The notes beneath the pieces were generated by a model that saw nothing but the letters and a program-made list of their open reading frames with translations, had not been told where the DNA came from and did no database searches. From assembly GCA_964402535.1 (NCBI GenBank), contig CAYOCH010000001.1:8286-72285 (forward strand): 64,000 bases of DNA. The letters are read 5' to 3'. Below are positions 5,228 through 63,942 of this stretch, one piece after another. Both the position numbers and the translations under genes were made by a program. The stretch comes from an uncultured Candidatus Saccharibacteria bacterium. GTDB lineage: Bacteria > Patescibacteriota > Minisyncoccia > Phycocordibacterales > Phycocordibacteraceae. Each line of letters opens with the position of its first letter. Within the stretch, counting starts at the first letter, position 1.

Positions 5228-5272
5228 CGACGAGGTTGAGAATAACACATGTCGTGATAAAATCGCTCGCAC

Positions 5273-5345
5273 GGGCCATTAGCTCAGTTGGTAGAGCGCG
5301 TCATTCGCATTGACGAGGTCAGGAGTTCGACTCTCCTATGGTCCA
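5273..5345 (+). tRNA. tRNA-Ala(CGC)
   Basis: GGGCCAT..ATGGTCC acceptor with G3:U70, anticodon loop TTCGCAT. Confidence 0.8.
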
Positions 5346-5378
5346 CAAAGGGTTTGGTATACTTATCCATCATGAAAA

Positions 5379-5677: not shown

Positions 5678-5714
5678 CGATTTCGGAAAAAATACGGTAC
5701 AAATAGCGAGTAAG

Positions 5715-5785
5715 GGGCCTATAGTTCAGCGGTAGAACGCGTCCATGGCATGGACGAGGTCGGGGTCCGACTCCCCGTAGGTCCA
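5715..5785 (+). tRNA. tRNA-Ala(GGC)
   Basis: Acceptor GGGCCTA/TAGGTCC with G3:U70, anticodon loop ATGGCAT. Confidence 0.75.
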
Positions 5786-7113: not shown

Positions 7114-7131
7114 GCATTCTGCTATAACCGG

Positions 7132-7204
7132 TGGACCATAGCGGATTCGAACCGCTGACCCCCTCATTGCAAATGAGGTGCTCTACCAACTGAGCTAATG
7201 GCCC
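7132..7204 (-). tRNA. tRNA-Ala(TGC)
   Basis: GGGCCAT acceptor with G3:U70, anticodon loop TTTGCAA, T-loop TTCGAAT. Confidence 0.8.
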
Positions 7205-12712: not shown

Positions 12713-13513
12713 TCATATTTGCATCGAGTCTTGAACTTCGTAAGTCTCTGCGGTCAGTATCAGCTCTATAGAACGCGCCCAAAGAAGATATATGTTACTT
12801 AGTGCAGCATTATGATCAAGAGGTGTTGGGAAGAGTGTGTGTATTTGCTGAACTAATCCGGTTCTATTTTCTGCCGAAATCGCGTAATCAATCGAGCCGC
12901 TTGGATTGGGGTCATTCGTTGGATGCTCAATGATATATTTAATAATCTGCAGTATCTTCGACAGATCGTCTTGAAGCGTTTTATCATCCGCCGCGAATGA
13001 AGCCATCTGGGTCTGGAAAACACGAACGGCTTGGACGTCCTGATTTTGAATAGCAGAGGAATACGAACTTCGCATTTGGTTCACATCTTGAAGTTCCTTA
13101 GTTATGTCTGCCCACAGCAGTGTCGCCGTCGCGCTGATTGCTTTATCGCTGTCATTGAGATAGGGCTGCAAACTACTGCTAGCGTTCTGCAAATGTGTCG
13201 CCGATTCATTTAACGCAGTCAGTATCACGACGTCTGACTGCGATTCTCCGAATGTTGCTTGCGCCTCGGAATAGGTTTTAGTTTTCCCATATAGCTCTGA
13301 AAGGGCAACAAGAAAAGAGTATATATAGTCGCTTGAATGCTGAGAATATTTACTATCATCCGTATTTGATGCGACGGAAGCATTAGTGGTATTTGCAGCT
13401 ACACTGTCGCCTGTGATAGGAGGGCTAGCGACGGAATGAATTCCCCATGCGATAGCTACAATCAATACGAGAACGACAACCGGGAAGAGTGTCGACTGTT
13501 CTGACGGCTTCAT
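12713..13513 (-). CDS. Hypothetical secreted/membrane-anchored Ser/Thr/Asn-rich protein (low-GC island)
   Basis: 266 aa, N-terminal TM helix; about 45% GC versus about 65% in flanking genes; no recognisable domain. Confidence 0.5.
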   Translation of the reverse strand: MKPSEQSTLFPVVVLVLIVAIAWGIHSVASPPITGDSVAANTTNASVASNTDDSKYSQHSSDYIYSFLVALSELYGKTKTYSEAQATFGESQSDVVILTALNESATHLQNASSSLQPYLNDSDKAISATATLLWADITKELQDVNQMRSSYSSAIQNQDVQAVRVFQTQMASFAADDKTLQDDLSKILQIIKYIIEHPTNDPNPSGSIDYAISAENRTGLVQQIHTLFPTPLDHNAALSNIYLLWARSIELILTAETYEVQDSMQI

Positions 13514-13544: not shown

Positions 13545-15587
<2,043 letters not shown>

Positions 15588-20094: not shown

Positions 20095-22899
20095 TTATCG
20101 CGAGAGGTAGCGCTCCCGAATCATGTTCTCTACCGTAGCACGGTCGCGGCCGTAGGTGAGGGAGGAGAGCTGGATAAGGTCGTTCACCTGCTCGTGATTC
20201 AGTGCCGGCAGATCGGGCGTGCGCAGGTCGAAGGGCTGCTGCGGTACGCCCTGCGAGAGGATCTTCATGTATGCATTGCGGTTCTCGATATTCACGAAGT
20301 CGAGGGCGACGAAGACGGGCGCGAACTGCTTGGCGAAGAACTCGGCATCCTCCTCCCCGACGCGGAAGACCGCCATGTTCCCCACGTTGCCGAAGACTGC
20401 GTCGCGCGTCTTCTCCTCGATCTGGCTCAAGAATTGGTGCGCGACCGTCAAGGAGAGCTTGTACTTGCGCGCCTCCGAAAGGATGCCCGGGATCGAGTCG
20501 GTCGTCACGTTCTGGAACTCGTCGATATACAGATAGAACGGCGGATACGCCGCGCGCGGATTGTCAGCGCGCGAGAGCGCGGCCATGAAGAGCTTGCCGA
20601 CGATGATGAGGCCGAGGAGGTTCGCGTTCTTCTCGCCCAAGCGCCCCTTCGAGAGGTTGATGAGCAGGATCTTCTTGGTATCCATCACCTCGCGGAATTT
20701 GAAAGAGGACTCCTGCTGCCCCACGATCGGGCGGATGAAGTCGTTCGCCGTGAAGTCGTCGAACTTGTTCGTGATATAGGGCACGATATTCTCCAAGGCC
20801 GCGTCACCGCCGGCCTTCGTCGCGATGTCTGTCCAGAACTGGTTCACGATCGGGTTGAGGCTCTTCGCGAGCTTCATGCGGCGGTACTCGCTGTTCGAGA
20901 GCACGCGCGCTATGTCGAGGATCGTCGAGCCGCTCGAAGGATCCTCCATCACGAGCTGCGTCGCATTACGGAAGTATTGCTCGAACGCGGGACCCATCGA
21001 CTCGGGCACGTCGCCATAGAGCCGCTTGAAGATCATCAGGAGCTCGTTGACGATGAACGTCTTCTGCTCCGGCCGCGAAAGATCGTATTCGAGGAAGTTG
21101 AGCGAGAAGGGGCGCGAGAGATCTGCCGGATCGAAGTAGATCACGTCCTTGTAGCGCTCGGGCGGGATCGCCGCGAGGATGTCGAGGATATCGGTGCCAT
21201 GCGGGTCGATAAAGCAGCAGCCCTCGCCCGCATTGATGTCCTGAATGATCATCGACTTCATCAGCCCGGTTTTGCCCGTGCCCGTCTGGCCGATCACATA
21301 GAGGTGCCGCAGGCGATCCTCGCTCGTGAGATAGATCGGCGTTTCTTGTCCGCGGTAGGAGTTGATGCCGAGAAGCGCGCCTGATTGAGGGAGGTTCATG
21401 GGTGCCGCGGCGTGCGTAAATCGCGCCTGCTTCAGGTGCGGCGAGCTCGCGATACCCGCTGGCGGGAAGTGATAGAGCGTCGTGAGCTCGCGCAGCGATA
21501 AGGGAAGCGCCTCTGCCGCAGGGACGCGGAATGAGAAGTCCTCGAACAACGCTTGCGCGCTTCGGCCTTCGATGCGTTTGAAGTCGAGCCGGTTCCCTTG
21601 CGTGTTACCGAACTGGTTGAATCCGGCCTCGAGCTCGCTCAAGACCTGCCCGGCCTTGCGCTCATCGGCAGAGGACGCGACAAGCCGGATCGTCGCGCCG
21701 ACGATCGGCGTCGCGATCTTCTTCTCGACCTCTTGGATGTAACTCTTGTTCGCTTCGGCTTGGCGCGTCTCGGCCTCCTTCGCCTTCTCGACATCCTTGG
21801 GCTTGCTCGAAAAGAGCCGCTTGCTGAAGTCGCGTGCAAGCTCGCCAAACGCCGTCTCGGGCGTGGTGAAGGCGGCTTGGCGCTTCTCCCCTTTTCGCAG
21901 CGCCTGGAGGATCTTGCTGTAGTGGCGCACGTGCCGATCGCCGCGCGGCTCGATGATGAGCTGTATCGCGGCACCCTCGCCCTTGTGCTCGATCTTGGCG
22001 AACGCGTTCGTGATCGCGTTAATCGGGTCGTAGTCGAACTCCGGGTACTCCTTCAAGGGGAGCGCTGGATTCTCGGCCAAGGTCGCGACCGACGCGAGCG
22101 AGGCACCCTTGGGAGCGAAGATGTTGTAGTCCAAGGGCTGCGGGACCAGGTGTGCGTCCGGGAAGATCGCGAGGAGCTGCTTCTCGAAGAGCGCTGCCTT
22201 GCCGTTCGGCACTGCCGCATAGAACTGGAGCTCGGGCGAGTTCGCCGGCACAGCGAGCTCGAGCGCGAAGTAGGGCGGCTCGTCGCCCTGTGCATCGCCG
22301 ACCGAGAGCAACCCGGCATAGAACTGCTCCATGCCGGAGATGAGCTCCTTCAAGGTCTTCTGTCGCGCGCCCTGCTCTTGCACCTTCGGCGCGGGTAGCG
22401 CGATCTCGTAGAGCGTCATCTTGAGCGCGCGGAATCGGGGCGCCTTCTCGTCGGCCCCGGGCACCACGAGGCCGGCGGCGATGTAGCGCACCAGGTAGCG
22501 GTGGAAGTCGTCTGCGACCTCGGGGTCGCCCATCTTCTCGACGATCGCGAGCGCATTCTTGATCCCATGCTCCTGCATCGCCTGTTGCAGGCTCGCGATC
22601 ACGCGCTCGTCGTCGCCAAGGGCGAGATCAGAGAGGATAGCCTCGGCCTCGCTCTTCTTGGTCTTCTCGCTGATGCGATACTCGCGGGCGAGCACCTTAT
22701 CGGGCGCGTCGGCATGCTCCTTGACCTGCTCCGAGATGATGCGCACGTGCTCGAACGCGCTTGGCGACTTGCCCCTGCCCGCCAGCTCCGCCTCTTTCTT
22801 GGCCACTTGCTCGCGCAGGTAGGCCAATTCCGCTTCAGGCGTGGACAACGTCGGTGCCGATTCCATGTGATATCTAGTATACTGCACGCGAATGCTCAA
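20095..22899 (-). CDS. FtsK/HerA/TraD-VirD4-like P-loop ATPase (type IV secretion/conjugation coupling-protein-like)
   Basis: 934 aa; Walker A VIGQTGTGKTGLMK, Walker B YLYIDEFQNV, downstream TVAHQ motif; N-terminal about 450 aa lacks TM helices. Confidence 0.6.
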   Translation of the reverse strand: MSIRVQYTRYHMESAPTLSTPEAELAYLREQVAKKEAELAGRGKSPSAFEHVRIISEQVKEHADAPDKVLAREYRISEKTKKSEAEAILSDLALGDDERVIASLQQAMQEHGIKNALAIVEKMGDPEVADDFHRYLVRYIAAGLVVPGADEKAPRFRALKMTLYEIALPAPKVQEQGARQKTLKELISGMEQFYAGLLSVGDAQGDEPPYFALELAVPANSPELQFYAAVPNGKAALFEKQLLAIFPDAHLVPQPLDYNIFAPKGASLASVATLAENPALPLKEYPEFDYDPINAITNAFAKIEHKGEGAAIQLIIEPRGDRHVRHYSKILQALRKGEKRQAAFTTPETAFGELARDFSKRLFSSKPKDVEKAKEAETRQAEANKSYIQEVEKKIATPIVGATIRLVASSADERKAGQVLSELEAGFNQFGNTQGNRLDFKRIEGRSAQALFEDFSFRVPAAEALPLSLRELTTLYHFPPAGIASSPHLKQARFTHAAAPMNLPQSGALLGINSYRGQETPIYLTSEDRLRHLYVIGQTGTGKTGLMKSMIIQDINAGEGCCFIDPHGTDILDILAAIPPERYKDVIYFDPADLSRPFSLNFLEYDLSRPEQKTFIVNELLMIFKRLYGDVPESMGPAFEQYFRNATQLVMEDPSSGSTILDIARVLSNSEYRRMKLAKSLNPIVNQFWTDIATKAGGDAALENIVPYITNKFDDFTANDFIRPIVGQQESSFKFREVMDTKKILLINLSKGRLGEKNANLLGLIIVGKLFMAALSRADNPRAAYPPFYLYIDEFQNVTTDSIPGILSEARKYKLSLTVAHQFLSQIEEKTRDAVFGNVGNMAVFRVGEEDAEFFAKQFAPVFVALDFVNIENRNAYMKILSQGVPQQPFDLRTPDLPALNHEQVNDLIQLSSLTYGRDRATVENMIRERYLSR

Positions 22900-24882: not shown

Positions 24883-25590
24883 CTATTTGACCACCTGGTC
24901 GAGCGCCGCCTTAAAGTTCGCGTAGGGGTACGCGCCGAGGATCAGCTGCTTGCCGATCACGAAGGCCGGGGTCGCGTTCACGCCCGCCTTCTGCCCTTCT
25001 GCCTTGTCGGAGGCGATTGCAGCGTCGTACGCCGCTTTGTTCGCGGCGACAGCTGCGGTGACCTTCGCCGCATCGATGCCCGCGACCGACTCCGTCGTCT
25101 TCTTGATCCAAGCGAGATAGTCGGCATCGTTCAGGGTGTTCTCGGTCGGCTGTGTCGCGTAGATCGCAGTGCGCCAGTCCATGTACTTGTCCGGATAGAG
25201 CTGCCACACCGCGCGGCCATACTCTGCGCCGACCAAAGAATCAGGACCAAGGAAGGCGAAGTCCATCACGACGATCTTGACCTTGCCGGTGGCGACATAG
25301 TCCGTAATGATCTGCGGCAGCGTATTCACCTCGAACTGCTTGCAGAAGGGGCACTGATAATCGCTCCAGAACGCGATCGTGAGGGGCGCATCGGCTTTGC
25401 CGATGTAGGGGTCGCCGGCCGTCTTCAGGTCCTTGACTTCTGCCTGCGCCGCAGGCGGCTCGTCGCCCTGCTGCCCTGCCCCAGCCTGCCCGGCAGGGCG
25501 AGAGCCGTTCCAGAGCACGGCGCCCGCGATCAGGATGCCGGCCACGATGACGGCGACGGGTAAGAATTTGCTAGTGTCGGTGGTTTCCAT
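24883..25590 (-). CDS. DsbA-like thioredoxin-fold thiol:disulfide oxidoreductase, membrane-anchored
   Basis: CPFC active site in WSDYQCPFCKQF; start trimmed to METTDTSKF. Confidence 0.8.
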   Translation of the reverse strand: METTDTSKFLPVAVIVAGILIAGAVLWNGSRPAGQAGAGQQGDEPPAAQAEVKDLKTAGDPYIGKADAPLTIAFWSDYQCPFCKQFEVNTLPQIITDYVATGKVKIVVMDFAFLGPDSLVGAEYGRAVWQLYPDKYMDWRTAIYATQPTENTLNDADYLAWIKKTTESVAGIDAAKVTAAVAANKAAYDAAIASDKAEGQKAGVNATPAFVIGKQLILGAYPYANFKAALDQVVK

Positions 25591-25642
25591 ATGCGGGAGA
25601 TGATAGCATGCGCATAGACTGCGCAACCTGGGAGATATCGTT

Positions 25643-26116
25643 ATGAAAATCGCTACACTCGGCATCATCCTGAACGATAAGGGCGAGGTCCTCCTTGGCT
25701 TGAAAAAGAAGGGAGAGATCGGCACGGGCAAGCTCTCGGGCCCTGGCGGCAAGCTCGACCCGGGCGAGACACTCGAGAGCTGCTTGCTCCGTGAGACGCG
25801 CGAGGAGCTCGAGATCGAGCTTGATCCACGATCGCTCGAGCTCGCCGCACGGATCGACTTCTACGCCGACAACGCGTGCGACTTCTGCGTCTGGGTGTAT
25901 CGCGCAGAGATCTTGTCGGGAGAGCTTCATGAGACCGATGATATGGTACCGGGTTGGTTCCCGCTCACAGACGAAACATTCAAGCGGACCTACGAGGCTG
26001 ATCGGCACTGGCTGCCCAGAGCAGTCAATGGCGAGAAGTTTCGCGTCGACGTGTTCTATAAGGATCGCGCCAATACCTTTGACCGCATCGGCGAGTTCCA
26101 TCCGCTCACCATTTGA
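25643..26116 (+). CDS. NUDIX hydrolase (MutT-like)
   Basis: NUDIX box GPGGKLDPGETLESCLLRETREELEIE. Confidence 0.85.
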   Translation: MKIATLGIILNDKGEVLLGLKKKGEIGTGKLSGPGGKLDPGETLESCLLRETREELEIELDPRSLELAARIDFYADNACDFCVWVYRAEILSGELHETDDMVPGWFPLTDETFKRTYEADRHWLPRAVNGEKFRVDVFYKDRANTFDRIGEFHPLTI

Positions 26117-46751: not shown

Positions 46752-47753
46752 TTAGCCGCCATTATTGATACATCCGGTCTGAACCGCATTATTCACATCC
46801 GCCTGCCAGGGGCTGAAATTGCCCGTCGCCTTTAACAGGCACGCTGCTGCTGAAGCACTGCAATTGAGATTCGCGGCCGCATCTATGCACCTTTGCGGTA
46901 TCGAACTGCCGGGAATCGGGTTGCCGCCCTTGAAACCGGCAGCGCAATTCAAGCTAGTGCCGTCCGGCAATCCTGCCGCCGCGGTGCACGCCTTATTGTC
47001 GTAACATGATCCATTCCTTTGAAGAAGCACCTGGAACGCGCCGACGGCGCTCGATCCACTGCCCCATTTGTAGTTGATGAGATTCTTCCCGCAGCTGCTC
47101 TCTGGGCGAGCGATGCACGCGAACGTGTTCGCCTCCACATTTGAGAGTGAATAGCCTCCGGCGGCTGCAGCCGCCTGTACTGCAGCAGGATCACAGGCGC
47201 TTCCGGCAGGAGCGCCCGGTAAGACACTATTCAACGTTCCGGCATTTATGCCCGCCGTGTTCTGTTCGACAGACTGACTGAGGCTGCCTTTAAGCGGGAT
47301 GCACCCTGTCTCTTGGATATTGCCCGAGGTGATGAGTGAGGACCACGTACCACCCACGGCACCCGGGTTATACAAGACCGCCATGATCGCGTCGACGATC
47401 ATCCAACCGGCGAGCGCGATGACGATGCCGGCGATCGTGTTCCAGAGCACCGACTTCGCATGTTCCCTGCCGCCCGCGTTCACCGGGTTTAGCACGAACA
47501 AGAAGCCGGCATAGGCGATCATGATCGGCGCGACGAACACGATCGCGATGGTGATAGAGAAGGCGATGATGTTGTTCGCCACCATGATGAGCATTCCCCA
47601 CCCCGCGGCGCAGGTCTCTGAGCCCAGGATGCCGCTCACCTGCTGTGGCGGGATGATCGGACCGAAGAACGGTATAGCCGCGTGCGCAGTGTACGGGATA
47701 GTGAACGAGCCGATGACGAACAGCAGCGCGATAATCGCGACATGAGAACGCAT
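46752..47753 (-). CDS. Two-TM pilin-like domain fused to Cys-rich extracellular domain
   Basis: N-terminal part shares the TM1-(GGREHAKS)-LW-TM2 architecture of the 58.9-61.5 kb paralog array; C-terminal about 200 aa has 12 Cys. Confidence 0.5.
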   Translation of the reverse strand: MRSHVAIIALLFVIGSFTIPYTAHAAIPFFGPIIPPQQVSGILGSETCAAGWGMLIMVANNIIAFSITIAIVFVAPIMIAYAGFLFVLNPVNAGGREHAKSVLWNTIAGIVIALAGWMIVDAIMAVLYNPGAVGGTWSSLITSGNIQETGCIPLKGSLSQSVEQNTAGINAGTLNSVLPGAPAGSACDPAAVQAAAAAGGYSLSNVEANTFACIARPESSCGKNLINYKWGSGSSAVGAFQVLLQRNGSCYDNKACTAAAGLPDGTSLNCAAGFKGGNPIPGSSIPQRCIDAAANLNCSASAAACLLKATGNFSPWQADVNNAVQTGCINNGG

Positions 47754-47831
47754 AGCCCTATCATACCTCCCTGCCGCCTCCCCGAAGCGGCTTTCCCCAC
47801 TGCGGCTCATCTGCTATGGTTTGTGCAGTTC

Positions 47832-56028: not shown

Positions 56029-56670
56029 ATGGGAAGACATGCAAACCACTTCGACCTGTCATGGACTCACGATCTCGCGTATGTTGTGGGACTCTTAACA
56101 AGCGACGGCAATCTGTCTCCCGATGGTAGACACATTAATCTTACCTCTCGCGACAAGGAACTTGTTGAATATGCTCGCACGATTCTGGGTCTTACAAACA
56201 AGATCGGCAAGAAGGGTCGAGGGGGTTCGTTAACCAAAGACTATTATGTGCTGCAGTTCGGCAGCATACAATTCTATTCCTTTTTGCTTAAGATTGGGCT
56301 GACACCTGCGAAGTCAAAGACGCTAGGGCCGCTTGCGATCCCTCAACATTATTTCTGCGATTTCGTTCGCGGCTGCATCGACGGAGATGGAAACATCAGT
56401 GAGGCCTTGCACCCTGAGAGTTCGCTTATCCAGCTCCGTTTGCGCATTTCATCGGCAAGCCCCGCGTTCTTACGATGGTTGTTGACTCAACTGCGGCGGC
56501 AGTGCGAGGTGCCTGGGGGCTGGATCTATTTAGACAAGAAGAAATCTGTGAGTATGTTATGTTTTGGCAAGAGAGATTCAATCGATATATTACGAAGGGC
56601 GTACGAATATAAATCAGCGTATTTTCTGAGACGAAAATATGCGATTGCTAGGAAATATCTGGGCGAGTAG
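56029..56670 (+). CDS. LAGLIDADG family homing endonuclease (two-motif, single-chain type), free-standing
   Basis: Motif 1 YVVGLLTSDGNL and motif 2 FVRGCIDGDGNI about 100 aa apart; about 47% GC versus about 65% genome. Confidence 0.7.
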   Translation: MGRHANHFDLSWTHDLAYVVGLLTSDGNLSPDGRHINLTSRDKELVEYARTILGLTNKIGKKGRGGSLTKDYYVLQFGSIQFYSFLLKIGLTPAKSKTLGPLAIPQHYFCDFVRGCIDGDGNISEALHPESSLIQLRLRISSASPAFLRWLLTQLRRQCEVPGGWIYLDKKKSVSMLCFGKRDSIDILRRAYEYKSAYFLRRKYAIARKYLGE

Positions 56671-56742
56671 CCGAATTGGTACAGGCGCATGGCTTAGGAC
56701 CATGTCTCGCAAGAGGTGAGGGTTCGAGTCCCTCCTCGCCCA
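56661..56742 (+). tRNA. tRNA-Leu(TAG)
   Basis: Type II tRNA: acceptor GGGCGAG/CTCGCCC, anticodon loop CTTAGGA, long variable arm, T-loop TTCGAGT. Confidence 0.75.
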
Positions 56743-56749
56743 CTTGAGC

Positions 56750-56777
56750 TTGACAAACACGTGTTTTCGTGTATTAT
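56750..56777 (+). promoter_or_regulatory. Sigma-70-type promoter TTGACA-16 bp-TATTAT for the SPFH/NfeD operon
   Basis: Consensus -35, 16-bp spacer containing ACACGTGT palindrome, good -10; strong GAAGGAG SD 9 nt before ATG at 56836. Confidence 0.6.
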
Positions 56778-56835
56778 AGATAGCTAGATAGCGGGCTCTT
56801 TCCGCTACCCATCAACTCACAGAAGGAGAAGTCCA

Positions 56836-58008
56836 ATGTTAGACACCGTGCTTTCGTGGATGATCATCGTGCTTTTTGGCATGATGGCCGTCTGTATCCC
56901 CTTCTTCCTGCAGCAACTCGGCGAAGCCAGCATTCTCTTCACTACCGTGAAAGAAGGTACGGCTAAGGCGATTGTTCGCGGAAAATCCTTCGAACGATTC
57001 ATCATGTCATTCGAGGGCCGTCACCTGAATGACCCCGGGAAACCCTGGTTCGACGCTCGCCTGACGAAATGGGAGGTGGTTTACCACGGCGATATTCGGG
57101 GAGAGCTTGGGAAGGATGCGCATTACGACAATCGCTGGTGGCCGACTCGCTCACTCGGTCTGTATTGGATCGGATGGCCGTGGTCACATAGCGTCTATGT
57201 CTACGCGTTCGAATGGAATGAAACGGCGACGGATCGCGAAGGCAAACAGGTCATACGTCCTCGTGCAGAAGCTACCGACTACGTCGTTATCGGCGACTTC
57301 ACGTATGCAATCAAGACCGATGCCGCTGAAACAGCGGATCGCCTGCCGACCGACGAGCTCACGCTAGTCACGGTAGCGATTCAGAACCCGTATCGCGCCC
57401 TGTTCAACGGCGAAGACTGGATGCGCCGTACCACGTCTGCAATCAACCGACTGATCCGTGATATTGTCGGAAGGAAGACATTCGCTGAACTCATATCTTC
57501 TGATCTCGGGTCATTTTCTGGAGATATAGCTCGTCTGAGCAGAGAATTGCCCGGGGATGATCCGCAATCTAAACAAGGCGGACTCGAGGGGCGTTACGGC
57601 GTAGAAATACGCACAGCGGATCTGCAGACTGTCACCCTCACGGGGAAAGCTCAGGAGCGGAACGAGGAAGCGGCCGCGAAACAATACGTCGCCACTCAGG
57701 ATGCCTTAGCAGCAAGTATCAAAGGGAAAGCAGAAGCGGACGTCGCTCGGATGAAAGGTGAACAAGAAGCTGTGGTTATCGCACTGAAAGGTGCGAGAGA
57801 AGCCGAGGCGCTTGATAAACGCCTCGAAGTCATTAAGCGCCATGGCAAAGTCGCGGTTCAACTTGCCGGCTACGATGCATTGCAGGAGTCGGCAAAAGGT
57901 GCCGGCAGCACGATCATCTGGGCTAACGACCCACTTGGTCCGCTTGCCAGCCTGTTCCCGCACGGTCACCGCCAGCAAACTCAACAGAAAGGAGCCAAAC
58001 AAGCATGA
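56836..58008 (+). CDS. SPFH/band-7 (stomatin/flotillin/HflK-like) domain protein
   Basis: N-terminal TM, SPFH core, C-terminal Ala/Glu/Lys-rich coiled coil typical of flotillin-like proteins. Confidence 0.75.
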   Translation: MLDTVLSWMIIVLFGMMAVCIPFFLQQLGEASILFTTVKEGTAKAIVRGKSFERFIMSFEGRHLNDPGKPWFDARLTKWEVVYHGDIRGELGKDAHYDNRWWPTRSLGLYWIGWPWSHSVYVYAFEWNETATDREGKQVIRPRAEATDYVVIGDFTYAIKTDAAETADRLPTDELTLVTVAIQNPYRALFNGEDWMRRTTSAINRLIRDIVGRKTFAELISSDLGSFSGDIARLSRELPGDDPQSKQGGLEGRYGVEIRTADLQTVTLTGKAQERNEEAAAKQYVATQDALAASIKGKAEADVARMKGEQEAVVIALKGAREAEALDKRLEVIKRHGKVAVQLAGYDALQESAKGAGSTIIWANDPLGPLASLFPHGHRQQTQQKGAKQA

Positions 58009-58838
58009 CTACTGAAGATGTATGGATCAAGATAGGCTTCATATTCGCTCTTGCGGTCTGCTGTGCTGGAATGCTCGTCGTGACGATGTTCCTACGTAGC
58101 GGCGGGGCACACGCCGGCAAGATGGCACGCAAGCAAGCCAATGAAGATGCGATGCGCGACCAGAAACCGCGTACTGAGCCTGAGCCAACGACAAGGCAGA
58201 AAAAGAGGTACGAGTGGTTCAAATGGATCACTTCGTACTTCCCGATTCTCGCCCTCGCAGTCGCTACAACATTCCTCGCGTACTACTGGCTGACGGCTGA
58301 TTCGCCATCAATTAACGCAGTATGGACGGCAGTCAGGAGAAATGGTCTCTGGATAATTCTCGGGCTCTCTGTCTTATGGCTCACGCCTATTTTTCTTCCA
58401 GCAGAAGAGGACGAGAAGAGCGAAAAGCGCCGAAAGGAACGCGCTAGCGAGGCACGAAACATCGCGTACGGACTCGCAGCTGCAATGTTCATCGTCCTGC
58501 CGATCGTGAACTTCTTCTGGGGTGAGACGTCAGCGGCGGCGAAGTCGGAGGCGCAATTGCCCTCGGCGAAGCTGCCCTTGGCGAGCGAGCCGCAGTCTAA
58601 GTGGCCGAAGCTGGCCATCCCTGCCGGAGGGGAGTCCGAGAGGATCCCCCTCCCCGTCGGCGGCATGCACGTGTCGGTCGCCGGCTGGAACATCAAGGTG
58701 CACAACGTCTTCAGCAATGGGACGGAATGCATCTCCGGTGCGGCTGGGTGCGGAGACGGGGACATCGTCTCTGTCTATGTGACCTCCGACTCAAGAGAGC
58801 CGATGGTAGTCGCATACGCATACGAACCCAAGAAGTGA
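58005..58838 (+). CDS. NfeD-like membrane protein (partner of SPFH protein)
   Basis: ATGA start/stop overlap with the SPFH gene; multi-TM N-terminus and C-terminal beta-rich domain (GGMHVSVAGWNIKVHNV...DIVSVYVT), as in NfeD OB-fold. Confidence 0.5.
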   Translation: MTTEDVWIKIGFIFALAVCCAGMLVVTMFLRSGGAHAGKMARKQANEDAMRDQKPRTEPEPTTRQKKRYEWFKWITSYFPILALAVATTFLAYYWLTADSPSINAVWTAVRRNGLWIILGLSVLWLTPIFLPAEEDEKSEKRRKERASEARNIAYGLAAAMFIVLPIVNFFWGETSAAAKSEAQLPSAKLPLASEPQSKWPKLAIPAGGESERIPLPVGGMHVSVAGWNIKVHNVFSNGTECISGAAGCGDGDIVSVYVTSDSREPMVVAYAYEPKK

Positions 58839-58853: not shown

Positions 58854-58896
58854 CAAAAAAAGGCCGCACGGATATTCCGGCGGCCTTTTTTCTTTT
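58854..58896. terminator. Bidirectional intrinsic terminator (A7-GGCCGCACGG-ATATT-CCGGCGGCC-T6CT4)
   Basis: GC hairpin with A-run upstream and T-run downstream between convergent NfeD-like gene and first pilin-like gene. Confidence 0.8.
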
Positions 58897-58904: not shown

Positions 58905-59189
58905 TTATGGCACCTGCGCAGACGTCGTTTGCTGATTGATCTTGTCGAGGTTGAAGGTGCCGAGCGCGATGTTGATGATCCCGTATGCGCCGAAGATGAT
59001 CACGAGACCGACGAGCCCCCACATGATCGCGCTCCTGCCCTCTTTGCGCTTCGTCTCGTCGCCCGCGTGTGCGATGAACTCGAACACGCCCCAGATGAAG
59101 ACGACGAACGCGCTCGCTGCGAGGAGCAGGATGACCGGATTGACGATCTGCGCGACGACCTTATCGAGAAAGTCGTTGAGCGCGGCCAT
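58905..59189 (-). CDS. Two-TM pilin-like small protein, paralog 1
   Basis: 94 aa; TM1-AGDETKRKEGRS-IMWGLVGLVIIFGAYGIINI; family motif G[DN][EP]xxKxxEG...LWGL[VI]G. Confidence 0.65.
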   Translation of the reverse strand: MAALNDFLDKVVAQIVNPVILLLAASAFVVFIWGVFEFIAHAGDETKRKEGRSAIMWGLVGLVIIFGAYGIINIALGTFNLDKINQQTTSAQVP

Positions 59190-59192
59190 CTG

Positions 59193-59570
59193 TTACTGGC
59201 CGACCTGGACGCCCGCCTTCGGCGTGCCGCCCGTGACGCCGGAGTTGTTGCCGAAGGTCACCGTGCCCGTGAGGATGTTGACCAGGCCCCAGATCGAGAC
59301 CATGACGAAGAAGCCGATCAAGCCCCAGAGCATGAGCCCCTTGCCCTTCTCCTTCACGTCTTCGTTGCCGGCGCCGATGATGAACGTCTCGAACACGCCG
59401 TAGAGGAAGACGATGAACGCGATCGCGAAGAGCACCGGCACGATGATGTTGTTGATCGTGTTGATGATGAACGTGCCGACGTCAGAGACGTTATTGATTG
59501 CGGCCATGGAGACCAAGGGCAGTGCGAGTGCTGCGACCGTTCCGGTAGTAAGGGCGAGGGCTTTTTTCAT
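59193..59570 (-). CDS. Two-TM pilin-like small protein, paralog 2 (with signal peptide)
   Basis: 125 aa; GAGNEDVKEKGKGLMLWGLIGFFVMVSIWGLVNIL. Confidence 0.65.
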   Translation of the reverse strand: MKKALALTTGTVAALALPLVSMAAINNVSDVGTFIINTINNIIVPVLFAIAFIVFLYGVFETFIIGAGNEDVKEKGKGLMLWGLIGFFVMVSIWGLVNILTGTVTFGNNSGVTGGTPKAGVQVGQ

Positions 59571-59651
59571 AGGTTAGATAAATGAGTAACGGATTAATTG
59601 TAGCGCCCGAGAGGGGCGGGTCAATACGGCTGGTGGATGCGTGTGGATAGC

Positions 59652-60218
59652 CTAAATGCCAGAACCGGTGCTCACGGAACACTGCGCAACGTCAGACACG
59701 ACGCTACCGTCAGGACAATACACATTGTTTGTGACAGGTGCACTCGCACTGGTTTGAGATGCCCCAGTAGGCAACGTCGCACTGGTTTGTGTAGGTGGCG
59801 GAGGCGGGATCGAGGCGCCAGAACCGGTCTGCGACGCGGATTTGCCGATCGTCGGGAAGTCCGGCGCGTTGCCGCCAGGCCGCAGACCGAGCGTGGACAT
59901 GAAGAGGTTCACGAGCCCCCAGAGTGAGAGGATGACCACGAAGCCGATCACGCCCCAGAGCGTGAACTGACGTCCTGTCGAGCGGCTCGTTTCGTCATCT
60001 GCTCCCTTGATGAAGTAATTGTAGACACCCCAGATAAAGACGATGAAGGCGATCGCCATCACTACTGGCACCAAGACGAAGTTGATGAAGTAGATGATCT
60101 GGTCGGTGTAGGGCTTCTTGATCGCGTCGATGTTGATGCCTTGCTGCGCTGCTGCGGCAAACGGCAGAGCGAACGCTGCTGCAAGCGATGAGAGGCGGAG
60201 GAGTCTTTTCATGGTCAA
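59652..60218 (-). CDS. Two-TM pilin-like small protein, paralog 3 (Pro/Thr/Ser-rich C-terminal tail)
   Basis: 188 aa; KGADDETSRSTGRQFTLWGVIGFVVILSLWGLVNLF; tail IPPPPPTQTSATLPTGASQTSAS. Confidence 0.65.
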   Translation of the reverse strand: MTMKRLLRLSSLAAAFALPFAAAAQQGINIDAIKKPYTDQIIYFINFVLVPVVMAIAFIVFIWGVYNYFIKGADDETSRSTGRQFTLWGVIGFVVILSLWGLVNLFMSTLGLRPGGNAPDFPTIGKSASQTGSGASIPPPPPTQTSATLPTGASQTSASAPVTNNVYCPDGSVVSDVAQCSVSTGSGI

Positions 60219-60225
60219 GATCAGA

Positions 60226-60693
60226 TTAGTAGTTCGGCGGCTGGATGTACGGCTGCGTCTGCCCTGTCCCCGTGGTCGGAGGTGGCGGTGGCGGCGTGCT
60301 CTGTCCGCTGCTGCCCGAAGGATTACCGGTACCGTAGACCGGAGCGACTGCCGGACCGAAGGGCGAGATCGAGGTCGGCGTCGGCGGCGCGTAGTAACCC
60401 GCGAGACCGAAGGTGTTCGCCACGACGTTCACGAGCCCCCAGATCGAGACCATGACTGCAAAGGCCACGAGCCCCCAGAGGATCAGGTGATGACCCTCCT
60501 TGACCTTTTCCGGATCACCGTAGGAGAAGATGTATGAGCGCGCGATCCCGTAGAGGAAGACGATGAACGCGACCGCGAAGAGGACAGGGACCAAGACCGA
60601 GTTTATGATATACAGGATATTCTGTGCCACGAGACAGATCGTATTCGCACAATAGTTCCCCACCGTAACGCCGAGGCCGAATGAGATATTCAT
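60226..60693 (-). CDS. Two-TM pilin-like small protein, paralog 4 (poly-Pro tail)
   Basis: 155 aa; YGDPEKVKEGHHLILWGLVAFAVMVSIWGLVNVV; tail STPPPPPPTTGTGQTQPYIQPPNY. Confidence 0.65.
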   Translation of the reverse strand: MNISFGLGVTVGNYCANTICLVAQNILYIINSVLVPVLFAVAFIVFLYGIARSYIFSYGDPEKVKEGHHLILWGLVAFAVMVSIWGLVNVVANTFGLAGYYAPPTPTSISPFGPAVAPVYGTGNPSGSSGQSTPPPPPPTTGTGQTQPYIQPPNY

Positions 60694-60714
60694 ATGAATG
60701 CAGTATATAGCCGA

Positions 60715-61029
60715 CTATGCCTGGGGGGCGATGCCGAGCGTGGATAACATGATGTTCACGAATCCCCAGACGGAGAAGAGGACGATGAGCCCGATGATGC
60801 CCCAGAACATGAACTTGCGCCCCTCCTCTCGCTTGGTCTCGTCTCCGCCGTGGATGAACAGATAGTCGACGGCGCCCCAGACGAACGCCGCGAACGCGAG
60901 CGCGAAGATGACCGGGATGACGACAAGGTTGAAGAGGCCGATAATGCCGCTCGAGCCGCTCCCGACATATTGTGCGAAGGTCATGCTAGCCGCCGAGCGC
61001 CTGGACGGTCGCCTGGATCGCCATCGCAA
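60715..61029 (-). CDS. Two-TM pilin-like small protein, paralog 5
   Basis: 104 aa; HGGDETKREEGRKFMFWGIIGLIVLFSVWGFVNIM. Confidence 0.65.
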   Translation of the reverse strand: MRWRSRRPSRRSAASMTFAQYVGSGSSGIIGLFNLVVIPVIFALAFAAFVWGAVDYLFIHGGDETKREEGRKFMFWGIIGLIVLFSVWGFVNIMLSTLGIAPQA

Positions 61030-61480
61030 TCGCCTGCGCGCCGAGGAGGACGAGCGCGCCGATGACTGTCCACAGGAGCATCGTGCGCGCCTCCGTGATC
61101 TTGCCTGGCTCGCCCTGCGCGGTCACGAACTTGAAGCCGACATAGACGACCATCAGGATCACGACGATCGTGCCGATGCGGATGATGAACTTGAGGATCT
61201 CGCCCAAGAACCCTTCGAGACTGTCGCCGCTCGTCAAGGGGTTCGTGAGAGTGACGCTCGAACCCTGTCCGGTCACCCTGTCACCCGAGTTCGTCACCGG
61301 AGCGGTCACGGAGGAGTCCCCCGAATTGACGACCGCCGCACAGACTTCTCCACCCGCATCGACGCACTGATTCGGATTCAATGTCCCTGGCGTGCAGTTC
61401 GTCGGGCACGTGAGCGCACGAGCGCTTGGTGCGACGACAAAGAGGGAGAGGACGAATGCGGCGACGATGAGAGTACGCAT
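60986..61480 (-). CDS. Two-TM pilin-like small protein, paralog 6 (Cys-containing N-terminal extension after signal peptide)
   Basis: 164 aa; QGEPGKITEARTMLLWTVIGALVLLGAQAIAMAI; N-terminal CPTNCTPGTLNPNQC...EVC. Confidence 0.55.
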   Translation of the reverse strand: MRTLIVAAFVLSLFVVAPSARALTCPTNCTPGTLNPNQCVDAGGEVCAAVVNSGDSSVTAPVTNSGDRVTGQGSSVTLTNPLTSGDSLEGFLGEILKFIIRIGTIVVILMVVYVGFKFVTAQGEPGKITEARTMLLWTVIGALVLLGAQAIAMAIQATVQALGG

Positions 61481-61481: not shown

Positions 61482-62777
61482 TTATGGCTGTAAGAGTGCG
61501 GTGAGCGACCGCTCGGCTCCCGCGAGCGCGGCTTGCAGGTTCAAGCGGCCGCTGATCACATTCCCAATCATAGCCGAGAAGACAGCGTCGGTGTCTGCAG
61601 GCGCTGGGGATAGCCAGCCCTTCGCATAGAGCGCTTCAGAATAGGCGACGGCTGCCGTCGCGTCTGCGGGCGCCTGCGAGAGCTGCGAGAGAGAGGCCGG
61701 CGCAAGGCCGGTATTCGCGGCCGCAGTGGCCTGCGCCGCAGAGTTCGTGAGGTTGGCGGCCGCCTGGTAGGCGCCTGCAGAGTTCCTGGCTCCGCGCGGG
61801 AACATGAATGCATAGACAAGCCCGTATGTGCTCTTCCCATTCGCGGTCGCCGGCTGCGGCACCGGTACCATGTCCATATCGAGGTTCGGGTTGGCCGCGC
61901 GGATAAAGCGCGCCTCAGAGGCGTAGCCGAGGTAGAGCGCAAGGTCGCCCGAGAGGAACGCCTGCTGCGAGTCCGGCAGGGACGCATTCCACGTGTACGA
62001 GACCTTCGATGGATCAGTGAACTGGGTATAGAAGCCGACAACGGCCTGCCCTGCCTGCCCATCTGCCGAGCCGAGATTCGCGACCGGCACGCCCGCGGCC
62101 GAGTAGCCGGCCACCCCGACGCCGGTCTGGATAAAGAGCGTCGAGAGGATGCCGCGCGCGTCGTGCACATTGTCGTAGGTACCGAGCGCGATCAGCCCGC
62201 GCGAGACCTGGCGCGAGGCGGTGAGCTTGGCCGTGCGCGGCACGAGCCCCACCAAGGCCTCCCAGGTCGCGGGTGGCTGCGCGATCCCGCTCGACGAGAG
62301 GATTGCGCGGTTGGTGAAGAGTGCGATCGGGTCGATCAAGAACGGCACGCCGTAGTAGCCCTGGTTGCCAGGCGCGGCGAAGATATTCCCCCCTTCGACG
62401 AACGCGCTCTGAAAGGTGCGCGCCGAGAGGGTCGCAAGCGGGATCGGCGTGAGGAATTTGGCGAGCGGCTTCAAGAGCTCCTGCGAGGCGAGAATCGCGT
62501 CTGGCGCTGCGCCGGTCGCGATCGCCGAGGCGAGGTCAGAGGCGAGCGTCGCAGGGTCCTTCTGCACATAGGTGACCGCCTTCATCGTCTGATCAGTCTG
62601 CTGCGCAGCGTTCAGGGTCGCGGTCATCGCCGTGCCGGGGAGCGTGCCCCAGATAAGGACGGTGCCGACGGCGTTCGTCGAGCCCTTGTTAGAGTAGGTC
62701 GCAAAGGTGAAGAGGCCGATCACCGCAGCGAAGGCGAATACGCCGAAGAGGATGGTCTGGAAGAGGGATAATTTCAT
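61482..62777 (-). CDS. Membrane-anchored extracellular solute-binding-like protein
   Basis: 431 aa; N-terminal TM then periplasmic-binding-protein-like alpha/beta sequence; 2 nt upstream of the pilin array on the same strand. Confidence 0.45.
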   Translation of the reverse strand: MKLSLFQTILFGVFAFAAVIGLFTFATYSNKGSTNAVGTVLIWGTLPGTAMTATLNAAQQTDQTMKAVTYVQKDPATLASDLASAIATGAAPDAILASQELLKPLAKFLTPIPLATLSARTFQSAFVEGGNIFAAPGNQGYYGVPFLIDPIALFTNRAILSSSGIAQPPATWEALVGLVPRTAKLTASRQVSRGLIALGTYDNVHDARGILSTLFIQTGVGVAGYSAAGVPVANLGSADGQAGQAVVGFYTQFTDPSKVSYTWNASLPDSQQAFLSGDLALYLGYASEARFIRAANPNLDMDMVPVPQPATANGKSTYGLVYAFMFPRGARNSAGAYQAAANLTNSAAQATAAANTGLAPASLSQLSQAPADATAAVAYSEALYAKGWLSPAPADTDAVFSAMIGNVISGRLNLQAALAGAERSLTALLQP

Positions 62778-63362
62778 TTAGGGTGCTGTGAAGATAATAC
62801 CGTAGTGATGCGGCCCGGCGCGGAACGACTTCTGCTTGTGGAAGCCGCCATTGATGAAAAAGGCCTCGGCGTCGCGCTCGGTCACCACCTTCTCAGGCGT
62901 GGGGCCCATGCCGCCGTAGCTCCCTGCCCAATCAACCACCATGAGCTTGCCGCCCTGCTTCAAGACGCGCTTGATCTCGTTCAAGAGCCCGTAGCGGTTC
63001 TCGACTTGGAAGAAGGTGTTCGCGAGCAGCACCGCGTCGAGCGAGGCGTCGCGCAGGTGCGAGCCGCCCGGCTTCTCGATGTCGCCCCAGATCGCGTCGA
63101 TCGTGTTCACGTGGTGCGCGTGGGTGTTGTGCTTCAAGTGCTTCAAGACGTCCTCTTGAATATCGACCGCATAGACACGCCCGTCACGCCCGACCACCGC
63201 TGCTGCTGCGCGAGAATAATGACCCGAGCCGGCGCCGAAGTCGCCGACCCGCATCCCCTCGCGCAGCCCGATCTGGAGCACGTTCTCGTGCGGAGAACTG
63301 AAATGCGCGCTCATGTCATAAAAATACCACGTGTCATCCGCTACCGAACGCGCAATCAACAC
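62778..63362 (-). CDS. Class I SAM-dependent methyltransferase
   Basis: Motif I VGDFGAGSGHYS, motif II DAVLLANTF; true start may be MSAHFSS at about 63314. Confidence 0.7.
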   Translation of the reverse strand: MLIARSVADDTWYFYDMSAHFSSPHENVLQIGLREGMRVGDFGAGSGHYSRAAAAVVGRDGRVYAVDIQEDVLKHLKHNTHAHHVNTIDAIWGDIEKPGGSHLRDASLDAVLLANTFFQVENRYGLLNEIKRVLKQGGKLMVVDWAGSYGGMGPTPEKVVTERDAEAFFINGGFHKQKSFRAGPHHYGIIFTAP

Positions 63363-63426
63363 TCGTTATCCGTATCTTCTCGATAGTCGACAATCCACTA
63401 ATTATAACGGCCGTTAGAATTAGTGG

Positions 63427-63942
63427 TTAATCCTCGATCGGTAGACCGAAATGCTGACGGAGCGGTTTGTCGTATTCAATCTTCTCAACGATCGCATACA
63501 ACACATCCTTCCCGACCCGCAGCTCAGATTTCAACAACGTAACGAACTCCTCGCAATCATACGGGAATGCCCACACGCTGGCCTGTAACTTTACGAATCC
63601 AACGTCACGCATTAGGTCGCGCAGACGAAATCGGACGGACTTGCGTCTCTCGGGGATATCAAAAATGACGAGCCGCCATCTCTTGTCCCATTTCCGCTTC
63701 TTTATCAATTGCGCTTTCTCCTTCTCGAACAGGAGCGCCGTGCGACCCTTGTCCGTGATGCGCAGAAACGTCTTGCCGTCTTCCTTAACCCATTCCGCTA
63801 ACCCTTTATAAACAAGCTTGCCTGCAGCAGTCTTCGCGTAATAGCGGAAACGGTTCAGGTCCTTCGGCTTCCCGAGCAGTTGAATCGCATTTCCAGCAAG
63901 CGCTCCGACCGTCACGATCGTGGCGAGGCCGAGCGTTATCAA
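63427..63942 (-). CDS. Hypothetical protein with Cas2-like/PaaX-like C-terminal segment
   Basis: 171 aa; WRLVIFDIPERRKSVRFRLRDLMRDVGFVKLQASVWAFPYD resembles the Cas2 core; about 50% GC; no CRISPR array nearby. Confidence 0.35.
   Translation of the reverse strand: MITLGLATIVTVGALAGNAIQLLGKPKDLNRFRYYAKTAAGKLVYKGLAEWVKEDGKTFLRITDKGRTALLFEKEKAQLIKKRKWDKRWRLVIFDIPERRKSVRFRLRDLMRDVGFVKLQASVWAFPYDCEEFVTLLKSELRVGKDVLYAIVEKIEYDKPLRQHFGLPIED

Follow-up and report, generated by a model that had tools for sequence, protein, structure and literature searches.

A conserved array of six VirB2-like pilin genes in a Kaiserbacteria-like member of the Patescibacteria

Why should a bacterial chromosome carry six adjacent genes for proteins that look alike in architecture and differ so much in sequence? 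Such genes lie on the minus strand at 58905-61480 of the window, by which we mean the whole 64-kb stretch of DNA analysed here. A sequence-only reading had taken them for divergent T4SS-type pilins diversified as a surface filament or adhesin. The open reading frames were found exactly at the positions it gave, and the array as an observation is confirmed, while the interpretation is supported in part. Judged by the names that homologs and related loci carry (Kaiserbacteria, Paceibacterota or Minisyncoccia), the host belongs to the CPR/Patescibacteria, and the window is a piece of chromosome from a Candidatus Kaiserbacteria-like bacterium of that group. The question has some weight, as a very large part of bacterial diversity falls to the Patescibacteria, which live fixed to other microbial cells. 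For the one species of theirs that is open to genetics, both the T4SS and its pilin array are essential (PMC10633639).

Gene models and family assignment

The first gene, g1 (58905-59189), encodes 94 aa without a signal peptide, and its second helix is typified by ...FGAYGIIN. It is preceded by g2 (59193-59570), with 125 aa, a signal peptide and a conserved Gly/Thr-rich tail. Next comes g3 (59652-60212), with 186 aa from an ATG, a signal peptide and a Pro/Thr/Ser-rich tail with a two-Cys segment at its end. The product of g4 (60226-60693) has 155 aa, no obvious signal peptide and a poly-Pro/Thr tail; that of g5 (60715-60984) has 89 aa from an ATG, no signal peptide and almost no tail; and that of g6 (60986-61480) has 164 aa, with a signal peptide and a Cys-containing extension of about 80 aa before the hairpin. 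TTG starts would lengthen two of these frames, g3 to 59652-60218 and g5 to 60715-61029, but the ATGs at 60212 and at 60984, the latter one base past the g6 stop, are likelier, and public gene calls of 186 and 89 aa agree with them. Are the six frames chance ORFs? This was rejected, as each of them recurs, intact and separate, in dozens of species.

To which family do the proteins belong? The whole-protein HMM scores against the Pfam family T4SS_pilin (PF18895) are 40.3, 38.0, 29.9, 32.0, 43.5 and 30.3 bits for g1 to g6, all above the gathering score of 26.6 bits, and precomputed PF18895 matches are also present on the same proteins in public contigs. The HMM check thus bears out the assignment to the T4SS/VirB2-type pilins of the CPR for six proteins of six. 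None of them reaches the gathering score of TrbC/VirB2 (PF04956; 27.9 bits), the best being g6 with 24.9, and g1 and g3 score 13.7-14.7. The most divergent and most TrbC/VirB2-like of the paralogs is g6, which still aligns with the profile of g1-g5 at a probability of 94% in hhalign (E = 1.4e-7). Identity among the six is 21-37% over the full length and 18-48% in the core. A published definition of a patescibacterial VirB2-like pilin array takes at least two PF18895 or PF04956 genes, in tandem or with one non-pilin gene between them, in a Patescibacteria genome and of low identity (PMC12102498); here six adjacent PF18895 members of low mutual identity were found.

The anatomy of the proteins follows what had been described. 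In all six, two strongly hydrophobic 19-mers (Kyte-Doolittle scores 1.6-2.9) flank a short charged loop such as DETKRKEGR, as expected for two TM helices, and the optional signal peptide corresponds to an N-terminal signal-like hydrophobic segment on g2, g3 and g6. The quoted motifs GDETKRKEG, GDPEKVKEG and LWGLIG...SIWGLVN hold for g1-g5 and are degenerate in g6. The two Pro/Thr-rich tails are those of g3 (IPPPPPTQTS...) and g4 (TPPPPPPTTG...). An AF2 model of g2 predicts a signal helix followed by a two-helix hairpin (helices 28-65 and 70-100, pLDDT 82-93), and a fold search with this model returned generic helical hairpins only. Sequence-profile searches with the g6 alignment or the g1-g5 alignment matched no solved pilin in the PDB.

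Neighbouring genes and conservation

The array does not stand by itself. One nucleotide upstream of g6 lies a co-directional gene (61482-62777, minus strand) for a membrane-anchored protein of 431 aa, which had been called solute-binding-like. Its single sequence has no Pfam match, and a profile of 61 orthologs matched 4r9f (MBP1) in the PDB with E = 4e-13 over residues 84-430, 5ci5 with E = 4e-10 and many further sugar-binding proteins. The similarity covers both lobes, so the protein is assigned to family 1 (sugar/MalE-type) of the solute-binding proteins. No genes for partner ABC permeases or ATPases were found among the scanned window proteins or the conserved neighbours in related loci. 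The packed unit begins with a gene for a class I SAM-dependent methyltransferase (62778-63362, minus strand; 194 aa; Methyltransf_11 62.9 bits), which abuts the solute-binding protein gene.

How far is this arrangement kept? Around the array, 80 loci of related species were compared. A g6-type pilin directly follows the solute-binding protein gene in 74 of the 80 with a median gap of 2 nt, and the median gap between that gene and the methyltransferase gene is -4 nt. Exactly six pilin genes are present in 63 loci, the full order g6-g5-g4-g3-g2-g1 in 56, and methyltransferase, solute-binding protein and six pilins in this order in 51; the neighbourhood in related genomes therefore answers the earlier call for such a comparison with a conserved gene order. 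Synteny across the clade is, however, wide, with gyrA upstream and IF-2 downstream of the array region, and for this reason gene order is weaker evidence for a functional link of the pilins to the methyltransferase and the solute-binding protein.

Within an array position the core identity is 0.54-0.75, against 0.18-0.48 between positions. The most conserved paralog is g2 (core identity 0.75, dN/dS 0.18), with over 1,100 homologs, of which the 120 best are of equal length and 73-84% identical; its tail is conserved as well, with F106, N108 and P117 invariant. Orthologs of g1 are present in 79 loci (0.64, dN/dS 0.20), and the values for g4 and g5 are 0.70 with 0.24 and 0.61 with 0.25, respectively. 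The highest dN/dS values are those of g3 (0.37, with a core identity of 0.54) and g6 (0.34). Length varies freely only in the N-terminal extension of g6 and in the C-terminal tails of g3 (0-379 aa among orthologs) and g4 (11-58 aa). The core dN/dS of 0.18-0.37 is similar to that of the neighbouring solute-binding protein (0.21); these values refer to the alignable cores, since the tails could not be aligned, and are approximate because dS is about 1.1-1.3, near saturation. The diversifying selection that had been proposed among the paralogs thus finds no support in the cores: they are ancient ortholog groups at fixed positions. As far as the alignments tell, the six paralogs are an old, conserved set under purifying selection, each position a separate ortholog group. 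Such position-by-position orthology with purifying selection across about 80 species was not found described in the searchable literature.

Is there any T4SS machinery at hand? No virB4, virB6 or virB3 was found among the selected ORFs of the 64-kb window (Pfam/NCBIfam) or among the conserved ORFs within 10 kb of the array in the 80 related loci. In two reference loci, the large flanking ORFs out to 10 kb are those of housekeeping genes, gyrA and IF-2 among them. In Paceibacteria, virB4 is reported near dnaA (PMC12102498). The link between the array and a T4SS would accordingly come from the family annotation and from analogy with other lineages. A VirD4/TraD-like ATPase operon had been noted at 17.7-22.9 kb. 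Within it, the minus-strand gene at 20095-22899, unlinked to the array, encodes a TraD/VirD4-like (coupling-protein-like) P-loop ATPase of 934 aa, with TraG-D_C at 28.1 bits (cut-off 22), DUF87 at 23.2 bits and sub-threshold NCBIfam TraD/VirD4-like matches. Its 784-aa neighbour could be assigned to no family. A homolog of the 934-aa ATPase within 10 kb of the array was seen in none of the 80 loci, and a functional link between the array and this operon 36 kb off is weak. Patescibacteria have many coupling-protein homologues, which as a rule are not linked to virB4 (PMC12102498).

A seventh paralog, fused to a Cys-rich domain, had also been noticed. The protein (46752-47810, minus strand) has a signal peptide, a pilin-type helical hairpin and a C-terminal Cys-rich domain that may be of the lysozyme or lytic-transglycosylase kind. 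It is matched by the clade pilin HMM with E = 8e-7 and by hhalign at 93%; PF18895 does not match the window protein, though it does match some orthologs. By these profiles it is a distant relative of the array pilins and not a clear PF18895 member. Its C-terminal domain has conserved cysteines and an invariant Glu in a ...PES.CG... motif, in which it may be likened to VirB1-type and other secretion-associated lytic transglycosylases and lysozymes such as EtgA. Unlike these enzymes, it forms one protein with a pilin-type hairpin, is Cys-rich and has no match to the Pfam SLT or lysozyme families.

Transcription signals of the operon

The genes are closely packed, with intergenic gaps of -4 to 28 nt in related loci except for a g3-g2 spacer of about 86 nt. 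Where does the unit end? Between g1 and a convergent gene for a 277-aa membrane protein lies a bidirectional intrinsic terminator (58855-58892), made of an A6 tract, a 10-bp GC-rich stem with one bulge and a T7 tract. The predicted fold has a dG of -29 kcal/mol (z = -5.3), and 0 of 200 shuffles were as stable. Direct reading and RNA folding thus agree on the strong terminator that had been described beside the array. An intrinsic-terminator consensus scan missed it because of the bulge in the stem; direct reading and folding recovered it.

Where does transcription begin? Upstream of the methyltransferase gene, the consensus scan alone points to a promoter-like site (TTAACC-18-TATAAT, 63401-63430, minus strand), and the strict -35/-10 pattern is not conserved there in related loci. 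The same kind of scan places a sigma-70-type promoter for g2-g1 (TTGACC-16-TACAAT, 59597-59624, minus strand) in the 81-nt g3-g2 spacer. A comparable -35/-10 pair stands upstream of g2 in 74 of the 80 related loci, versus 0-3 loci for any of the other operon genes. Thus g2-g1 is the only part of the operon with a conserved predicted sigma-70-type promoter of its own.

The 9-mer TTATCCACA is the DnaA-box consensus established for E. coli and B. subtilis. Seventeen nucleotides upstream of the -35 hexamer of the g2 promoter lies the element CTATCCACA (59642-59650, minus strand), which matches this E. coli / B. subtilis consensus at 8 of 9 positions and occurs nowhere else in the 64-kb window. Several related loci have a perfect TTATCCACA upstream of g2. 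The shorter form TATCC[AC]CA is found there in 65 of the 80 loci, with the 17-nt spacing to the -35 hexamer in 46 of 57, and of 75 matches to YTATCCACA in 1.17 Mb of loci, 53 fall at the g2-upstream position. By its likeness to the consensus the element is a putative DnaA site, and another transcription factor could recognise it. Other sites resembling TTATCCACA in the related loci were considered as signs of a regulon; those upstream of the PaaX-like gene are the left arm of another palindrome, ATATCCTTATC-N18-GATAAGGATAT, and therefore have no bearing on the g2 box.

Possible roles of the six pilins and comparison with known systems

What, then, are the six genes for? With moderate confidence, we read the region as a conserved chromosomal operon of a Kaiserbacteria-like bacterium that encodes six anciently diverged VirB2-like pilins of a patescibacterial T4SS. 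By analogy with VirB2 and TraA, each of the six pilins would insert in the cytoplasmic membrane so that its loop faces inwards and its two ends outwards. A T4SS powered by VirB4, with its genes at another place in the genome, would extract them and polymerise a pilus, or a channel stalk, reaching the host cell, and the Pro/Thr-rich tails that vary in g3 and g4 would then lie on the outside. Most likely the six are distinct in role, since they are individually conserved and not turning over. In such a set g2 may be the abundant major subunit and the other five minor, initiating or tip subunits; it is its promoter and its conservation that would make g2 the candidate.

Could the paralogs instead be interchangeable variants of one surface subunit, serving surface variation or host matching as in the VirB2 arrays of Bartonella and Anaplasma? 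So the sequence-only reading took them, and the idea is also put forward as a speculation in PMC12102498. It agrees with the low core identity of the paralogs, with the tails of g3 and g4 and the N-terminal extension of g6, which from species to species are hypervariable in both length and composition, and with more distant loci (L067-L081) in which g4- and g5-type members are exchanged or missing and g3-like copies number two to four. But each position is a stable ortholog with signature residues of its own, in a fixed order over dozens of species, the core dN/dS is no higher than in the adjacent solute-binding protein, the g2 tail is itself conserved, and neither recent duplicates nor gene-conversion tracts were seen. 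The rapid turnover or positive selection of the Bartonella/Anaplasma type was thus not seen in the cores, and we regard interchangeable antigenic variants as unlikely. In this large clade the six pilins are an ancient and fixed set of which one member has a promoter of its own, and this favours a division of labour over surface variation. Decay of one larger gene into fragments, or genes of the holin or bacteriocin-immunity type, is rejected as next to impossible, and nothing was found that speaks for it: the ORFs are intact, with their own starts and stops, and separately conserved in up to 80 species, so they are not pieces of one pseudogene; all six are under purifying selection and belong to PF18895, and a PHROGs scan gave no relevant holin or phage-family match.

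Another view keeps 'pilin' as an annotation only and makes the six proteins envelope-resident small two-helix membrane proteins, for instance parts of a T4SS channel or partners of the co-transcribed solute-binding protein. The absence of T4SS core genes nearby, a methyltransferase gene and an orphan solute-binding protein gene so tightly coupled to the array, and the generic hairpin predicted for g2 would all suit it, and pili are normally absent from Gram-positive-type T4SSs (PMC12102498, PMC10633639). It has to face the significant similarity to the T4SS-pilin family, the near-threshold TrbC/VirB2 score and the similarity to a pilin-like protein of conjugative elements, besides a homologous array in Saccharimonadia that lies inside a T4SS cluster and is essential (PMC10633639). 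We hold this view to be rather unlikely.

To our knowledge, a pilus built of PF18895 proteins has been observed in no organism. If the six pilins do form filaments, a bolder scenario can be drawn, which as a whole we hold to be quite improbable. They may build one hetero-subunit T4SS pilus, with g2 as the major subunit and the rest as minor, initiating or tip subunits with Pro/Thr tails; the membrane-anchored sugar-binding protein would join as an adhesin for host glycans, together with the methyltransferase; a DnaA-controlled promoter of the major pilin would tie pilus output to replication in an obligate episymbiont; and the pilin-lysozyme fusion would put a wall-cutting enzyme on the filament or at its base. 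In the literature searched, no multi-subunit VirB2 pilus, DnaA-controlled pilin promoter or pilin-muramidase fusion was found. The locus in any case offers concrete things to test, namely the candidate for a major subunit, the conserved cis-element, the sugar-binding protein co-transcribed with the pilins and the putative fusion of pilin and lysozyme.

How does the array compare with known systems? TrbC/VirB2 pilins (PF04956), such as the T-pilin of Agrobacterium and TrbC of RP4, are likewise small, with two helices around a charged loop and a signal peptide in some. Here, unlike there, the host is monoderm, the paralogs are six and not one, the Pro/Thr tails are long, and no virB3 or virB4 is adjacent. 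Another counterpart is the Mbov_0395-family pilin-like conjugal transfer protein of Mycoplasma ICEs (NF045849), whose 80-residue model aligns over its full length with g2 (model positions 2-80, E = 4.6e-6) and also with g6; the scores of 26.2 and 19.2 bits, respectively, fall short of the 40 bits set as the curated cut-off. Hosts on both sides are monoderm or wall-less with FATA-type systems, whereas the Mycoplasma gene is single-copy on a mobile element and the array here is chromosomal with six genes. Type IV pili sets (PilA with FimU-PilVWXE) serve as an analogy only. There, too, anciently diverged and individually conserved pilins stand in a fixed operon order and one member is more strongly expressed, which for g2 is only predicted. 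The protein family and assembly machine are unrelated, and hetero-assembly here is hypothetical.

The nearest counterparts are in the Patescibacteria themselves, where tandem arrays of 2-11 VirB2-like pilins were reported in 383 assemblies, most commonly in Microgenomatia and Saccharimonadia (PMC12102498, Quinonero-Coronel et al. 2025). In Southlakia epibionticum ML1 the T4SS cluster itself contains a series of predicted pilins that is essential (PMC10633639, Wang et al. 2023), and this array was counted as six pilins (PMC12857230). VirB2-like pilin arrays in this superphylum are therefore already published, and the basic finding here is confirmatory. The present array shares with them PF18895 membership, tandem arrangement, the number of six genes counted in S. 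epibionticum, low within-array identity, the superphylum and a chromosomal location. It differs in coming from the class Paceibacteria (Kaiserbacteria-like), in lying neither in nor near a virB4 cluster, and in being packed behind the methyltransferase and solute-binding protein genes.

Array anatomy and pilin family

The window, in which there are 13 tRNAs besides housekeeping genes, comes from the chromosome of a bacterium of the CPR/Patescibacteria; six tRNA genes (Pro-CGG, Val-CAC, Pro-GGG, Ala-CGC, Ala-GGC and Ala-TGC) cluster at 4979-5786 and 7130-7204. Six successive ORFs occupy the minus strand over 58905-61480. They are g1 (58905-59189, 94 aa), g2 (59193-59570, 125 aa), g3 (59652-60218, 188 aa from a TTG, or 186 aa from the ATG at 60212), g4 (60226-60693, 155 aa), g5 (60715-61029, 104 aa from a TTG, or 89 aa from the ATG at 60984) and g6 (60986-61480, 164 aa). 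On identical contigs the public gene calls give 186 aa for g3 and 89 aa for g5. The alignment reveals a common core in all six proteins, with identities of 30-37% among g1-g5 and 21% to g6. Each protein has a short charged loop flanked by two strongly hydrophobic segments; g2, g3 and g6 have in addition a signal-peptide-like N-terminus, and g3 and g4 end in Pro/Thr-rich tails. In the AlphaFold model of g2, a signal helix is followed by a two-helix hairpin (pLDDT 82-93), and the tail is disordered.

The sequence-only reading had described this six-gene array and its anatomy accurately, and the strong bidirectional terminator that it placed at the array end was found at 58855-58892 (dG -29 kcal/mol, z = -5.3). 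Its assignment to T4SS-type pilins also holds. All six proteins pass the curated Pfam threshold of PF18895, "Type IV secretion system pilin" (26.6 bits), with scores of 29.9-43.5 bits, and none of them matched phage or holin families. With the TrbC/VirB2 model g6 scores 24.9 bits, near but under the cut-off of 27.9, while the NCBIfam model for a pilin-like conjugal transfer protein from Mycoplasma integrative elements gives end-to-end alignments with g2 and g6 that stay under its threshold. In profile-profile comparison g6 is related to g1-g5 (94%, E = 1.4e-7). The array is real and the pilin classification is correct. A reading of the six ORFs as pseudogene fragments was excluded, since each is intact and separately conserved. 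There are more than 1,100 homologs of g2, and the named ones are from metagenome-assembled genomes of Minisyncoccia, Paceibacterota or Kaiserbacteria.

Conservation of the six positions

Are the six paralogs recent variants of each other? The comparison set was 80 loci from a scan with one genome per species, many of them from Candidatus Kaiserbacteria or Paceibacterota and one on a complete 993-kb chromosome; their ORFs were assigned to the best-matching window paralog. Exactly six pilin genes are present in 63 of the 80 loci, and the order g6-g5-g4-g3-g2-g1 is found in 56. A g6-type pilin directly follows the gene of a solute-binding protein in 74 loci, and the whole series of methyltransferase, solute-binding protein and six pilins is kept in 51. 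Over 76 core columns, identity averages 0.54-0.75 among genes at one position versus 0.18-0.48 between positions, and signature residues distinguish each position. The more distant loci (L067-L081) keep g6, g2 and g1, and the middle members vary. The most conserved of the six is g2. The parts with freely varying length are the N-terminal extension of g6 and the tails of g3 (0-379 aa) and g4 (11-58 aa).

Pairwise Nei-Gojobori dN/dS on conserved columns is 0.20 for g1, 0.18 for g2, 0.37 for g3, 0.24 for g4, 0.25 for g5 and 0.34 for g6, compared with 0.21 for the solute-binding protein and 0.13 for the methyltransferase; these values are rough because dS is about 1.1-1.3. The cores are under purifying selection. 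The diversifying selection suggested earlier is therefore disfavoured for the cores, given the position-wise orthologs, the fixed order and core dN/dS of 0.18-0.37, and the pattern argues for a long-standing functional differentiation of the six paralogs. That they are interchangeable variants is quite unlikely, being weakened by the same position-wise orthology and purifying selection.

Operon layout, g2 promoter and neighbouring genes

The packed unit starts with a class I methyltransferase gene (62778-63362), and the solute-binding protein gene (61482-62777, minus strand) sits between it and the pilins. In the related loci the median gap is -4 nt from methyltransferase to solute-binding protein, 2 nt from there to g6, then 1 nt (g6 to g5), 28 nt (g5 to g4), 9 nt (g4 to g3), 86 nt (g3 to g2) and 4 nt (g2 to g1). 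The overlapping or abutting frames suggest co-transcription of methyltransferase, solute-binding protein and pilins. Gene order alone is no proof of functional linkage, because synteny is broad in the clade, with gyrA upstream and IF-2 and ClpB downstream. The 431-aa solute-binding protein has an N-terminal membrane anchor, and its 61-sequence profile matches solved family-1 sugar-binding proteins over both lobes (4r9f, E = 4e-13). Protein family scans of selected ORFs found no ABC permease in the window. This orphan membrane-anchored protein could be a glycan-binding surface protein and not part of a transporter.

The g3-g2 spacer of the window (59571-59651, minus strand) contains the promoter TTGACC-16-TACAAT. 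In 74 of 80 loci a comparable -35/-10 pair lies 5' of g2; for any other operon gene this holds in only 0-3 loci. Located 17 nt 5' of the -35 hexamer, CTATCCACA is the sole such 9-mer in the 64-kb window; it matches TTATCCACA, the DnaA-box consensus established in E. coli and B. subtilis. TATCC[AC]CA is found 5' of g2 in 65 of 80 loci with nearly fixed spacing, and of the 75 YTATCCACA sites that the 1.17 Mb of loci contain, 53 fall at this position. Either DnaA or another factor may bind the DnaA-box-like element. Co-regulation by DnaA through it is conceivable, because virB4 is next to dnaA in Paceibacteria (PMC12102498). Look-alike sites 5' of the adjacent PaaX-like gene in related loci were rejected as g2-type boxes, since they are part of a different palindromic operator. 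This conserved palindrome, ATATCCTTATC-N18-GATAAGGATAT, lies 5' of the gene of the PaaX-like regulator (with a Cas2-like domain), at L023:2830-2880 with equivalents in L037, L040, L064, L030, L031 and L039, and is probably the regulator's own operator. The PaaX-like gene of the window is at 63427-63942, and the region equivalent to the palindrome is just past the window end.

On the other side of the array, 56029-58838 has lower GC (0.52 over 56-58 kb) and contains an SPFH/Band-7-like protein, a membrane protein of 277 aa and, between tRNA genes, a LAGLIDADG-like ORF. The stretch may be prone to insertion, since this side differs among related genomes. Elsewhere, a 266-aa ORF without a Pfam match (12713-13513, minus strand) has a GC3 of 0.43 against about 0.8 in its neighbours, with a local GC of 0.50, and may be horizontally acquired; the long flanking ORFs (9679-12366 and 13545-15587) look like uvrA and uvrB.

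Proposed pilus model and published arrays

The seventh paralog fused to a Cys-rich domain, also claimed earlier, is borne out at 46752-47810 (minus strand) as a distant relative: the protein matches the HMM for pilins of the clade (E = 8e-7), and comparison with the profile of g1-g5 gives 93%. Its orthologs, 44-70% identical, occur in many Kaiserbacteria-like genomes; some sources call them "pilin", and some carry PF18895. A Glu and nine Cys are invariant in the C-terminal domain, which is modelled with pLDDT >90, has no Pfam annotation, and gives weak lysozyme matches among PDB profiles (best E = 0.005). The gene thus appears to encode a pilin-type hairpin fused to a predicted lysozyme/lytic-transglycosylase-like domain. 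A DsbA/thioredoxin-like exported protein (24883-25752, minus strand) may be relevant to disulfide formation in g6 and the seventh paralog, whose exported domains are Cys-rich.

By analogy with VirB2/TraA, with which the hairpin anatomy is compatible, the pilins would be inserted in the membrane with both termini outside, then extracted and polymerised by a VirB4-driven machine encoded elsewhere, with the tails at the outer face. The six probably have distinct roles, and g2 is the candidate major subunit because of its own promoter and highest conservation. In none of the 80 loci was a virB4, virB6 or coupling-protein gene found within 10 kb of the array, and the TraD/VirD4-like ATPase of the window (934 aa, 20095-22899) is 36 kb away; in Patescibacteria such genes are abundant and mostly unlinked to virB4 (PMC12102498). 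Directly 3' of the ATPase gene is a 784-aa Ala/Pro/Glu-rich protein (17736-20090, minus strand) with one central hydrophobic stretch and no Pfam or NCBIfam match. That the six are membrane proteins forming no filament is unlikely.

This kind of feature is already known. Quinonero-Coronel et al. screened 3,035 genomes of Patescibacteria for PF18895 and PF04956 and reported 441 arrays, each of 2-11 VirB2-like pilin genes, from 383 assemblies, with a mean within-array identity of 25%; adaptation to host strains was proposed as their role, in analogy to Bartonella and Anaplasma (PMC12102498). Wang et al. described a series of predicted pilin genes within an essential T4SS cluster of Southlakia epibionticum (PMC10633639), and a 2025 review counted six pilins in this cluster and speculated on a pilus in a monoderm (PMC12857230). 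Our literature search found nothing on T4SS of Kaiserbacteria. New here, from sequence, are the conserved orthology of all six members, a promoter for g2 accompanied by the DnaA-box-like element, the sugar-binding protein packed with the pilins and the putative pilin-lysozyme fusion, details worth follow-up with functional roles that are putative only. The array itself is the same phenomenon as the published patescibacterial arrays (PMC12102498).
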